From positions 1 to 10,237 of the IMG/VR virus record IMGVR_UViG_2778261151_000009: a stretch of 10,237 nt of DNA; one strand, written 5' to 3'. The notes below the pieces were generated by a model that made no database searches, was not told the DNA's origin, and saw only the letters and a list, made by a program, of their open reading frames with translations. The translations under genes and the position numbers were made by a program. Of the stretch, positions 1,216-9,872 are shown one piece after another; the stretch's first letter is position 1, and each line of letters opens with the position of its first letter. This stretch comes from a virus. Taxonomy: Duplodnaviria; Heunggongvirae; Uroviricota; Caudoviricetes.

Positions 1216-1244
1216 CACAAAAAACCCGCTTGTGGGCGGGTTTT
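1216..1244 (-). terminator. tR'-like intrinsic terminator downstream of the late promoter
   Basis: Hairpin ACCCGC-ttgtgg-GCGGGT (1224-1241) with A-run on plus side (U-run in minus-strand RNA) and T-run on the other side, so potentially bidirectional. About 45-70 nt downstream of the candidate pR'. Confidence 0.6.
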
Positions 1245-1289
1245 GTTTGCTTTTGCCATCACGTAAAAAATCGGCAAAATATCAGATTT

Positions 1290-1322
1290 GCATGAATATA
1301 TGCCTTTCAATCTACTTTTGCA
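1290..1322 (-). promoter_or_regulatory. Candidate late promoter pR' (-35 TTGCAA, ~16-17 bp spacer, -10 TATATT) overlapping the Q-like gene end
   Basis: Minus-strand reading ttgcaaaagtagattgaaaggcaTATATTcatg. Position between the Q-like gene and the terminator/tRNA/lysis block matches lambdoid late-region architecture. Confidence 0.45.
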
Positions 1323-1995
1323 ACACTTTGCTTTGAAAATGCCGTCTTTTTTTTGAACGTGTTCTCATTACAAACAATAAAGCCTCACTATCCAGTCGGT
1401 GAAAAATGTGTTTCATTGCAACCCAGTGACGAGTAAATGTTTTGGACCAGTTTTTAGTTGTCACTCCCGCCAGTAATGCCAGCTCCTGGTATTCATAACC
1501 TTCCCCACCAAAAAGTTCTGCTTTTACTGCCTGCGCCGCCAGCCAGATTAATTTTTTCAGGCGTTCCTGCGTTTTCCCTGCAATTTTTCTGGTACCGGAT
1601 TGAGCATTAAATTCATTCCACGCCCACTGTGTTATCGCGATCTGATATTCCCAACAAATACTCCCGCTGTAACACCACAACAACCAGGCTTTATGATGTT
1701 CTTCAAGAGACAGAACAGCCCGCCGCCACGATGATGTCGAAAACTCAACCGGACTGACCAGAGGAATTGACGTCCCCTTCGCCAGCGATTGCTTTCCCGG
1801 GATTGGTGGATTATCCCGCGTTATCATTTTTCCAGTCACTTCATCGCGGTACCGGATTTTTTTACGCCTGTAACGCCCTGTATCGAACATGGCATTCTCT
1901 TGCCAGGCTTCAAGCTGACCTTTTGTTGCCCCACTCAAATCAGCGGTGGCGATAATGAGCTGCTCACGCACAAACTGTAAATACTGGTTATTCAT
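1312..1995 (-). CDS. Putative late-gene antiterminator Q-like protein (227 aa from ATG at 1995; family assignment by position)
   Basis: ORF track 1312..2001 (its first codon is GTG). ATG at 1995-1993 overlaps the rusA stop as ATGA. Located immediately upstream of the pR'-like promoter, tR' hairpin, tRNAs and the S/R cassette, downstream of rusA. No motif verified by search. Confidence 0.55.
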   Translation of the reverse strand: MNNQYLQFVREQLIIATADLSGATKGQLEAWQENAMFDTGRYRRKKIRYRDEVTGKMITRDNPPIPGKQSLAKGTSIPLVSPVEFSTSSWRRAVLSLEEHHKAWLLWCYSGSICWEYQIAITQWAWNEFNAQSGTRKIAGKTQERLKKLIWLAAQAVKAELFGGEGYEYQELALLAGVTTKNWSKTFTRHWVAMKHIFHRLDSEALLFVMRTRSKKRRHFQSKVLQK

Positions 1996-3844: not shown

Positions 3845-4000
3845 TTACTCCTCAGGTTCGTAAGCTGTGAAGACAGCGACCTCCGTCTGGCCGGTTCGGA
3901 TTCGTACCTCGCAGAGGTCTTTCCTCGTTACCAGTGCCGTCACTATGACGGTTAAACAGATGACGATAAGGGCGATTAACATCGCCTTTTGCTGCTTCAT
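3845..4000 (-). CDS. hok: Hok/Gef family type I toxin (51 aa)
   Basis: MKQQKAMLIALIVICLTVIVTALVTRKDLCEVRIRTGQTEVAVFTAYEPEE is a single TM helix plus the conserved Hok periplasmic tail. ORF track extends it in frame to an upstream ATG at 4057. Flanked by promoter, terminator and 5'/3' complementary elements. Confidence 0.9.
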   Translation of the reverse strand: MKQQKAMLIALIVICLTVIVTALVTRKDLCEVRIRTGQTEVAVFTAYEPEE

Positions 4001-4176
4001 AGCCTGCTTCTCCTTGCCTTTCGGCACGTAAGAGGCTAACCTACATGTGTTCAGCATGGATTGAGCCTCAGATTAATGTTAAGCGTCTTGCAGGACGCGT
4101 AATGTTAACTGGGGCTTTTCTCTATCTGCCTTTTGGTGTTCATGCCTGAGACAGATAGCCTCAAGCACCCGCAGTC

Positions 4177-7513: not shown

Positions 7514-7939
7514 TCAATGCACAGCCACAATATTTCCTGCAGGGCCACCACGATTCATCTGGTTGAAACCAGCGATCGCCACTGCGACAAAATCATCAGC
7601 GTCTCTCACCAGTCGTTCCCGCGTCTCCACTAGTTCCCGAAAATAGGCTGAGCTATGGCTGCGCATTCGGGCCACCAGCAGAGGTGGCATTGCTTTTTCG
7701 ATAGCTGGTAACAACGCCTGAATTTTTTTAAGCGCATCAGGGGGGTCTTTCTCCACCCAGCGGAAAATTTTCTGAGTATTGCGAGCCAGGGCTTCCGGAT
7801 GGCTGTCGTCATACAGTTCCGGGAACGTCATTCCCAGCTCGAAATACGCTTTGGTAATTTTCGCAGCCGGTACTTTTTCGCCGTCCGGATGCGCCCAGGC
7901 ATTCATCGCCATGCGGATGTGTTCATGCTTGATTTTCAT
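7514..7939 (-). CDS. YdaT-like protein (position equivalent to CII in lambdoid early operons), 141 aa
   Basis: ORF track; ATG overlaps Cro-like stop as ATGA. Sits immediately downstream of the Cro-like gene. Family name from memory of Rac/CP-933P YdaT, not verified. Confidence 0.5.
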   Translation of the reverse strand: MKIKHEHIRMAMNAWAHPDGEKVPAAKITKAYFELGMTFPELYDDSHPEALARNTQKIFRWVEKDPPDALKKIQALLPAIEKAMPPLLVARMRSHSSAYFRELVETRERLVRDADDFVAVAIAGFNQMNRGGPAGNIVAVH

Positions 7940-8190
7940 GAATCAACTCCCATCAGCTTTTTCGTAGTAGTTTTATTCCTGCCAATAGTTAAAATTGCAT
8001 CGGCAGAAAATAATCCGTTTGATGCAAGAGCGATTTTTTCAGCGTAATTTGTTTCGCCGGTATATTCTGTGCGAGGCAATTTTCCGTTATCCATCCATTT
8101 ATAGATTGCTCTTTGGCTGACACCACAAACGTCGGCCACAACAGCAACGCGAACAGTTTTGATTACATCTTCAAGTGTTTTCTGGTTCAT
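7936..8190 (-). CDS. Cro-like HTH DNA-binding protein (84 aa from ATG 8190)
   Basis: ORF track 7936..8262, but the ATG at 8190-8188 has SD GAGGGTG 6 nt upstream. HTH signature VVADVCGVSQRAIYKWMDNGKLP. Divergent from the repressor gene. Confidence 0.7.
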   Translation of the reverse strand: MNQKTLEDVIKTVRVAVVADVCGVSQRAIYKWMDNGKLPRTEYTGETNYAEKIALASNGLFSADAILTIGRNKTTTKKLMGVDS

Positions 8191-8269
8191 ATCACCCTCA
8201 CAATGTGAACTTTGAGTACATGCTATAACAGAACTGACAGTACATTCAAGAGCGAATATCATTGAACTT
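8191..8269. promoter_or_regulatory. Divergent promoter/operator region between the Cro-like and repressor genes
   Basis: Repressor-side promoter: -35 CTGACA (8234-8239), 17-bp spacer, -10 TATCAT (8257-8262). Cro-side: -35 TTGAAT (plus 8244-8249), -10 TATAGC (plus 8222-8227). Two AACnnnnAGTACAT motifs at 8208-8221 and 8232-8245. Confidence 0.55.
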
Positions 8270-8689
8270 ATGGTTCATGAAGATAAAGCGCGTAAAGAGT
8301 TCGCCAGTAGGCTTGCGCTAGCCTGTGAAAACGCTGGTTATGAACAACATGGAAGGCAGGCAGAAATTGCCCGTCGAATGAAATTAACACCAAAAGCGGT
8401 TAGCAAATGGTTTAATGGCGAAACAATTCCTCGCCGGGAGAAATTAAGGGAATTAGCAACACTAATAGGAACAACACCAACCTATCTTTTGGGAGAGGAT
8501 ACAGAAGAAAGTGGACAGGTACGTTTCTATCAGGAGTTAAATCCAAGACAAAAAATCATCATTGACCTTCTGGACGAGCTCCCTGACAGTGAGACAGATG
8601 AACTTTTAAAAACTCTTGAAGAGAAAAAACAGAAGTACAATGCAATTTACGAAGAGTTAGCACGAAAGAAAAAACAAAAAGCCTCTTAA
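8270..8689 (+). CDS. CI/DicA-like XRE-family repressor lacking a peptidase domain (139 aa)
   Basis: ORF track; HTH GRQAEIARRMKLTPKAVSKWFNGETIP; C-terminal acidic/coiled segment. Divergent from Cro-like gene. No SD, with -10 placed about 7 nt before the ATG, suggesting a leaderless mRNA. Confidence 0.8.
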   Translation: MVHEDKARKEFASRLALACENAGYEQHGRQAEIARRMKLTPKAVSKWFNGETIPRREKLRELATLIGTTPTYLLGEDTEESGQVRFYQELNPRQKIIIDLLDELPDSETDELLKTLEEKKQKYNAIYEELARKKKQKAS

Positions 8690-9591: not shown

Positions 9592-9703
9592 TTGAAAACC
9601 AGAACGGGTGGAATTATAGTGCACCTGCACCTCATAAAACGGGTGCCGGGCGTGGAAACCCGAAATCATTCACGGCGCATAACCGCGCTCAGGCGGTTTT
9701 TTT
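9592..9703 (+). promoter_or_regulatory. Promoter-terminator unit: -35 TTGAAA (9592-9597), 17 bp, -10 TATAGT (9615-9620); terminator hairpin ACCGC-gctcag-GCGGT plus T7 (9682-9703)
   Basis: Near-consensus sigma70 elements followed about 60-75 nt later by a stem-loop and seven T. Could be a small RNA or an attenuating leader for the Rha-family gene. Confidence 0.4.
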
Positions 9704-9872
9704 ATGCGTTAAGCACAGCCACATTCGCATTATGGTGGGGCGTGCAGGGCAACCGCAAGGCTGGCCGGGTTCCGTGATGACCGGTATTTCCACCCCTGTA
9801 CGTCTCACCACCCTTATGGTCGTGGAAAACCTCGGTGGTGAGTTAATCAAATTCATCGCGGAGGCTGCCATC

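Follow-up and report, generated by a model that had tools for sequence, protein, structure and literature searches.

A probable phage-82-type late-gene control module behind a frameshifted Q gene in a lambdoid prophage of Escherichia coli

The closest described counterpart of the locus reported here is the late promoter pR' of phage 82. Transcription from 82 pR' starts at an AAA, a TG-extended -10-like element lies in the initial transcribed region (PMC5001585, PMC3326312), the segment from +15 to +17 reads GCC, and RNA polymerase pauses at +25/+26 with a U at +25 (PMC5001585). A G at +24 is implied by the same work (PMC5001585). The Q-binding element (QBE) of phage 82 is located between the -35 and -10 hexamers, and the stretch from -31 to +30 includes the QBE as well as the pause element (PMC4914094). 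The pR', 6S RNA, and tR' of lambda follow the same logic, with a constitutive late promoter, a QBE in the promoter, a sigma-70-dependent pause, and an early terminator that is overridden by Q. Two short RNAs are also relevant for comparison. StxS of the Stx phages is a late-promoter RNA present in lysogens and encoded upstream of tRNA genes; its stable form of 74 nt arises through RNase E cleavage of a primary leader of 258 nt, and a regulatory role has been demonstrated for it (PMC7547250). IsrJ, an sRNA of Salmonella Gifsy-1, is 74 nt long and has a start site of its own as well as an intrinsic terminator; it has been detected in lysogens, and invasion by Salmonella is affected by it (PMC2330248, PMC4825925).

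The stretch of viral DNA analyzed here (the window; 10,237 nucleotides, IMG/VR record IMGVR_UViG_2778261151_000009, Caudoviricetes) carries all of the genes near the finding, as well as all of the promoter, leader, and terminator features, on its minus strand (Table 1). The Q gene sits between the nin/rusA genes and the lysis cassette, as expected of a Q82-type antiterminator, and the RefSeq relatives share the gene order of the window (RusA, Q, tRNAs, holin). The region is very probably the late-gene control module of a phage-82-type lambdoid prophage of E. coli. Promoter, pause site, and terminator all lie within ~110 bases after the Q gene and form an ordinary late-gene switch; the locus adds one more, slightly damaged copy to the known examples of the classical late-control module of phage 82. 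It resembles phage 82 in the family of its Q protein (74% identity), the -35 hexamer TTGCAA, the position of the candidate QBE between -35 and -10, the AAA at the predicted start, the TG-extended -10-like element at +6 to +14, the GCC at +15 to +17, and the U at +25. Unlike phage 82, the window has a T at +24, a Q gene frameshifted at its C-terminal end, and tRNA genes after the terminator. The differences from lambda are larger: lambda has a Q protein of another family, a pause at +16/17, and a leader of 194 nt, compared with ~72 nt in the window.

Table 1. Features of the late-control region and neighboring genes, in reading order
Feature	Positions	Strand	Basis or remark
DUF968/HNH gene	3397-2339	minus	first in reading order, before rusA
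rusA	1992-2351	minus	directly before the Q gene in reading order
Q antiterminator gene, Q82 family	1312-1995	minus	PF06323 profile match; 74% identity to phage 82 Q
pR'/leader/tR' region	1323-1215	minus	between the Q gene and the tRNA genes
pR' -35 hexamer TTGCAA	1318-1323	minus	promoter scan and letter check; inside the last Q codons
Promoter spacer AAGTAGATTGAAAGGCA, 17 nt, candidate QBE	1301-1317	minus	putative assignment
pR' -10 hexamer TATATT	1295-1300	minus	promoter scan, letter check, related loci
Predicted start AAA, +1 at A1289 (plus or minus 2)	1287-1289	minus	AAA start of 82 pR'; relatives
Sigma-70 pause-inducing element TGaTATTTT	1276-1284	minus	TG at +6/+7; -10-like hexamer at +9 to +14
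Leader hairpin 1, UUUUGCC/GGCAAAA (+11 to +39)	1251-1279	minus	predicted fold; hairpin in relatives
GCC, +15 to +17, G/C-rich segment setting the pause position	1273-1275	minus	GCC of 82 pR'; letter check
Predicted sigma-70-dependent pause, +25 (U) and +26	1264-1265	minus	homology with 82 pR' only
tR' intrinsic terminator	1215-1244	minus	stem 1244-1221; GC core 1240-1225; U-tract 1224-1219
Promoter-like site TTGCAA-17-TATTAT	1123-1151	minus	scan; followed by GC-rich 9-mer CCTGCGCCC, then the first tRNA
Four tRNA genes	804-1113	minus	downstream of tR'; ARAGORN: CAU ('Met'), Lys, Thr, Gly
Structured spacer, 292 nt	512-803	minus	last tRNA to holin gene
P21-type holin	511-296	minus	lysis gene after the tRNAs

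The Q gene and its altered end

The 1312-1995 product matches PF06323 (Phage_antiter_Q) with an E value of 6e-91 and a score of 304.5 bits against a cut-off of 25, its residues 4 to 217 aligning to positions 1 to 214 of the 220 in the model. PF06323 was the sole Pfam family found at E values up to 0.01, and neither the lambda-type family PF03589 nor the phage 21-type family PF06530 matched. An NCBIfam scan of the protein returned no family, and a sequence search of the PDB found no related solved structure, the sole match being a chance-level one to a phage lysin. When compared with the Q protein of phage 82, 168 of 227 residues are identical (74%) over the full length and without gaps. The original prediction had left this Q-like protein without a family assignment, which no longer holds; the product belongs to an antiterminator family and not to a non-antiterminator one, which favors that earlier reading.

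Canonical members of the Q82 family consist of 229 residues and end in AK(L/V/P/M)(D/N), whereas the Q protein of the window has 227 residues and ends in KKRRHFQSKVLQK. The difference stems from the loss of one base in an A-run: eight A at 1347-1354 (minus) stand in place of AAAACAAAAGG, and the sequence at the frameshift reads TCAAAAAAAAGACGGC in the window as opposed to TCAAAACAAAAGGCGGC in intact relatives. The frame shifts 14 codons before the stop, so that the canonical 229-residue frame is not kept and the last 16 residues of the longer protein are exchanged for 14 others. An intact gene is found in strain 165 and in the Sakai prophage Sp12, and the intact 229-residue type corresponds to WP_016240600.1. 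In strain FDAARGOS_944 (NZ_CP065613.1), which differs from the window at 2 bases in 2 kb, the identical DNA is annotated by PGAP as a 'frameshifted' pseudogene. The allele of the window occurs at an identity of at least 99% in 16 of the 899 matching genomes. The length of 227 residues that had been given for the Q-like protein is therefore right, but it is the length of a frameshifted minority allele of a 229-residue protein.

Because of this C-terminal frameshift, the Q activity of the window copy is uncertain. It is conceivable, although we consider it improbable, that the locus is a decaying relic, that is, part of a cryptic prophage in which Q has been inactivated, the short RNA is a dead end, and the tRNAs are transcribed from their own promoter at 1151-1123. 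The pseudogene annotation and the rarity of the allele both point in this direction. However, the replacement is limited to the last 16 residues of Q, and AntQ of Gifsy-1, which has antitermination-linked activity in vivo, carries an unrelated C-terminal tail. Judging by analogy with AntQ, which is active with an entirely different tail, the C-terminal tail of Q may be nonessential.

Promoter, pause element, and terminator

The promoter scan placed TTGCAA-17-TATATT at 1323-1295 on the minus strand, and each element was checked letter by letter. The Q stop codon TAG (1314-1312) falls within the spacer of this promoter. The consensus matches by themselves are weak and not significant, with 7 promoter-like sites found against 1.8 expected and 1 terminator-like site found against 2.1 expected. 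Since the scan matches carry no significance on their own, the case for the module depends on the comparison with its relatives.

The -35 hexamer TTGCAA is present in 21 of 23 distinct related loci, as it is in the window and in phage 82, and the other two loci have TTGCAG and TTGAAA. The GenBank record of phage 82 (X92588) ends at the Q stop codon with ATTGCAAAACTGGATTAA, which contains the same -35 hexamer and the same start of the spacer; by our own count, the window matches 14 of the last 18 bases of this record. Within the spacer, the window reads AAGTAGATTGAAA where phage 82 reads AACTGGATTAA, with 3 positions differing. The spacer type AACTGGATT is found in 82, 434, and Gifsy-1, the Gifsy-1 spacer being of the TTGCAAAACTGGATTAAAA type, whereas the phage of the window has AAGTAGATT. 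Most of the variable bases of the spacer are at the same time part of the last codons of canonical Q, and the spacer is kept even where it is noncoding, as in Gifsy-1 and SW-37, in which the overlap with the Q coding sequence is gone. We consider 1317-1301 to be a candidate Q-binding element.

On the plus strand, 1318-1331 reads TTGCaacactTTGC, which fits the CII-binding consensus, and the record of phage 434 annotates paQ at the same place. A CII-dependent antisense promoter of the paQ type (TTGCN6TTGC) was nevertheless rejected for this site, as no CII-like gene was found in the immunity region of the window and the motif results from the palindromic -35 hexamer together with Q codons. The immunity region (7514-8689) is of the Rac/Qin kind, unlike that of lambda, with an HTH repressor at 8270-8689 (+), followed by a small HTH protein and a YdaT-family protein, both encoded on the minus strand. 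A hok/sok toxin-antitoxin pair is present at 3845-4170 (-), consisting of a Hok/Gef-family ORF at 3845-4057 and a sok RNA at 3995-4170 (118.9 bits).

Counting from A1289, a letter check of the window gave AAA at the start, TG at +6/+7, TATTTT at +9 to +14, GCC at +15 to +17, and T at +25. The transcribed part of 82 pR' was matched through its published text descriptions, and the sequence of phage 82 was compared up to the Q stop codon. AAA occupies the start position in 17 of the 23 distinct loci, as in the window, and the Rfam isrJ model begins 3 nt upstream of the predicted start. In the pause element, G7, A8, T9, and A10 are invariant and T6 is nearly invariant (alignment A1). The spacing from -10 to +1 in the window is one base shorter than in intact relatives, and the G found at +24 in near-identical E. 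coli copies has undergone a private change to T in the window. By analogy with 82 pR', a pause is predicted at approximately +25 (1265).

The terminator tR' was found by scan and letter check as a 10-pair hairpin at 1221-1244, in the core of which CCCGC (1240-1236) pairs with GCGGG (1229-1225); a run of six U (1224-1219) comes next. Counted from A1289 as +1, the predicted terminated RNA has a length of ~70-73 nt. The original prediction had put a candidate late promoter in 1290-1322, the Q-utilization and pause sites within 1260-1325, and promoter and terminator ~70 nt apart. The putative sigma-70 promoter, detected by scan and conserved in relatives, the candidate QBE, the pause element, and the predicted pause are all consistent with these placements, while the element coordinates bear out the distance. 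The interval 1216-1322 covers the whole promoter-to-terminator stretch, as had been proposed.

The start point, the pause, Q binding, and antitermination of this module we infer from the work on phage 82, according to which the module would operate as follows. Host sigma-70 RNA polymerase would initiate at pR' near A1289, after which sigma-70 would rebind the TG-extended -10-like element at +6 to +14 and the complex would pause at about +25. Without Q, the polymerase would resume transcription and terminate at tR' (1244-1219), releasing a two-hairpin RNA of ~72 nt. With Q bound between -35 and -10, the paused complex would become resistant to termination, and the resistant polymerase would read on through the four tRNA genes to the lysis genes, including the holin gene.

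Conservation among Q82-type loci and the tRNA genes

Loci of the Q82 family were gathered from phage records and, for each species, a single genome, yielding 23 distinct related loci in Escherichia, Salmonella, Klebsiella, Enterobacter, Citrobacter, Raoultella, Cronobacter, and Buttiauxella. The composite of promoter, pause element, and terminator follows the Q gene at the same position in the 23 distinct loci, the module being displaced from Q in Gifsy-1 and SW-37. The shared composite opens with TTGCAA, or a variant differing from it in one base, and continues with a spacer of 17 nt that fits AA-NNNN-A(T/C)T(A/G)AA and with a -10 hexamer. In most cases AAA comes next, and T(C/T)TG(A/G)TAT and a terminator complete it. 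In loci whose Q proteins are just 50-73% identical, the stretch from -35 to +17 is 71-85% identical to the window, whereas the 51 nt after +17 are 38-62% identical; judged by these identities, constraint is concentrated on -35 to +17.

These comparisons bear on whether the promoter and terminator could be chance matches, in which case the hairpin would merely end the early operon after Q and the late genes would be driven from elsewhere. The consensus scans by themselves, being not significant, would allow for this. However, eight genera have kept the entire composite at one and the same position, four independent descriptors of 82 pR' are matched, and the module of Gifsy-1 has been shifted from Q as a unit and still yields a mapped RNA. 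We regard an origin by chance as scarcely credible.

In 20 of the 23 distinct loci, the end of the first callable terminator stem falls between +44 and +72 (phage 434, +45; phiES15, +44; window, +65; Gifsy-1, +67), with two outliers at +90 and +111. A strict terminator scan made no call in two distinct sequences, L006, which has a stem mismatch and of which L007 is an identical copy, and L009, which has a poor U-tract. In phage 434, which has a Q82-like Q, the curated record shows a terminator 49-74 nt past the Q stop codon. As short leaders are found in most of the relatives, the ~72-nt leader is the norm of the Q82 family and not a peculiarity of the window. The earlier description of the leader as very short thus holds in comparison with the 194 nt of lambda but not within the Q82-type phages, where ~50-80 nt is the rule.

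The leader region is present in 977 of 5,426 complete E. coli genomes, or about one in six. PPompW prophages and Sp12 of E. coli O157 Sakai carry near-identical DNA (97-98%), in which Q bears the annotation 'phage late gene regulator Q'. Unlike the window, these copies have an intact 229-residue Q, one more base between -10 and +1, and a G at +24. Their tRNA sets, Ile-Arg-Arg in Sp12 and an annotated Met-Lys-Arg in PPompW, both differ from that of the window.

In two genomes with a Q protein 100% identical to that of the window, L006 and L007 (2207-2286), the pause element contains TGATACTTT and a G in the terminator stem has become a T (CCCTCC). These changes may represent further decay of the module and, occurring with the same Q allele, they lend some weight to the idea that the locus is a relic, as does the conserved promoter-like site close to the tRNAs. 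In the window itself, by contrast, the pause element and the terminator are intact.

Together with the GC-rich 9-mer, the tRNA-proximal promoter-like site (1114-1151, minus) directly precedes the first tRNA gene, suggesting Q-independent tRNA expression. Stx2 phages have, upstream of ileZ, a sequence with 91.7% identity to this stretch, and another prophage (L008) has the same promoter layout with a different spacer. Expression of the tRNAs probably occurs in both ways, independently and via Q-dependent read-through. The site at 1151-1123 was rejected as the late promoter because no pause element accompanies it and because it is found along with the tRNA genes in phages with leaders that fail to match that of the window. 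The tRNA with a CAU anticodon (1038-1113, minus) was called Met by ARAGORN, whereas the identical sequence is tRNA-Ile/ileZ in RefSeq, and 75 of its 76 bases are identical to ileZ6 in Sakai Sp12. Based on these two annotations, it is likely to be an AUA-reading tRNA.

The spacer between the last tRNA gene and the holin gene (512-803, minus) folds into three long hairpins with -92.5 kcal/mol and a z of -4.8, none of 200 shuffles folding as well. It contains a perfect 14-nt inverted repeat (746-733 with 685-672) and had no Rfam match. In Stx phages, the stx genes sit at this position.

The leader RNA and its relation to IsrJ

The leader of the window is predicted to fold with -23.9 kcal/mol (z of -3.3 against shuffles) into hairpin 1 at +11 to +39 and the terminator at +46 to +69. 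The 5' arm of hairpin 1 overlaps the pause element, and the predicted pause site falls in its loop. An analysis of 18 leaders by MAFFT and RNAalifold recovered the terminator alone and missed hairpin 1 because one sequence class is offset by 1 nt, and the leaders were therefore folded one by one. In these single folds, from which the conservation of hairpin 1 was judged, a hairpin is present at the same place in ~20 long-form leaders across genera with four different arm sequences, whereas the short leaders of the 434 type have no hairpin 1.

In a permissive Rfam scan, the isrJ model (RF01393) matched 1220-1292 over its full length (1-75 of 75) with 24.7 bits, below the gathering score of 37, and with E values of 0.036 in 900 nt and 0.0055 in 136 nt. 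The first 14 nt of the model are common to the window except for one base (UGUAAAUCUGAUAU vs UGCAAAUCUGAUAU). IsrJ starts with UGUAAAUCUGAUAUCGUCGCC, the same start and pause element as in the leader of the window, and its promoter in Gifsy-1 is likewise the same (TTGCAAAA..GATT.AAA...TATATT). The two RNAs also agree in their two-hairpin layout, their length, and their place before the tRNA and lysis genes in a phage whose Q belongs to the Q82 family, but the arms of hairpin 1 differ and are offset by 1 nt. By this sequence comparison, the leader of the window is a diverged homologue of the 74-nt IsrJ. As IsrJ has been mapped as a 74-nt RNA, it offers indirect experimental support that a homologous promoter-terminator pair yields a stable short RNA. 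A weak isrK match at 1219-1291 (20.9 bits) was rejected as driven by the terminator, a real isrK-like RNA being present at 9627-9703. Likewise, HnrS (EcOnc10-12) was rejected as the leader of the window, given that EcOnc10 maps to Sakai 2234239-2234287 (+) and the Sp12 leader lies near 2241000 (-).

In Gifsy-1, Q (AntQ) is followed by isrK, a C4-type RNA, the antirepressor gene anrP, TTGCAAAACTGGATTAAAACGGCTATATT, isrJ, a tRNA, and the lysis genes, in this order. The 82-type promoter/pause module of Gifsy-1 (L003 4179-5121) and SW-37 thus lies ~840 bp past Q, behind isrK, C4, and anrP, whereas the module of the window directly follows Q. The Gifsy-1 qut module may have been separated from Q by the insertion of an isrK-C4-antirepressor module. 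By its sequence, IsrJ appears to be the pR' leader of a Q82-type phage, with its terminator corresponding to tR'. This link was not found in the accessible literature on IsrJ and Gifsy-1. The window has a pair of its own at 9627-9815 (+), on the strand opposite to Q, in which an isrK-like RNA (67.7 bits; gathering score 50) is directly followed by a C4 antisense RNA (76.3 bits). This pair represents a P1-type c4/antirepressor control module, and the same isrK/C4 pair is located in Gifsy-1 between Q and the isrJ leader.

The homology with IsrJ raises the question of whether the 72-nt RNA acts mainly in trans, as a regulatory sRNA of the lysogen similar to IsrJ or StxS and beyond a by-product of antitermination. 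IsrJ is expressed in lysogens and affects Salmonella invasion, and StxS is a precedent for a pR' leader that functions as an Hfq-bound sRNA (PMC7547250). Moreover, in the RNA of the window, an A-rich linker leads to a U-tailed terminator, and the structure of hairpin 1 is kept while its sequence changes. On the other hand, conservation is poor past +17, leaders of the 434 type entirely lack hairpin 1, and there is no known target. The near-identical leader of Sakai Sp12 is absent from the supplementary table of Hfq-bound sRNAs of EHEC, which counts weakly against an sRNA role. Unlike the leader of the window, StxS is processed from a longer transcript and has a demonstrated regulatory role; its sequence appears to be unrelated, judging from the Stx-phage records, among which only PPompW-derived sequence matched the leader. 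We therefore consider a main role as a trans-acting regulator unlikely. We are equally doubtful of a more specific proposal, in which the ~72-nt RNA would be an IsrJ-class sRNA made constitutively by Q82-type prophages and IsrJ would conversely be the qut leader and tR' of Gifsy-1 AntQ, displaced by ~840 bp.

Taking the locus as a late-control module of the phage 82 type, the annotation of this region is largely settled, with a Q82-family antiterminator gene that has a frameshifted end and, in the next 110 bases, its promoter, pause site, and terminator. The tRNA and lysis genes are thereby placed behind the terminator tR'. The leaders of Q82-type phages, uniformly short and with a structurally conserved first hairpin, offer a compact natural template for studies of Q loading. 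If IsrJ is a pR' leader, the natural target of Gifsy-1 AntQ would be located at isrJ; the proposal set out above, if true, would tie the phenotypes of IsrJ to the natural target of AntQ and would provide a function for the structurally conserved hairpin 1.
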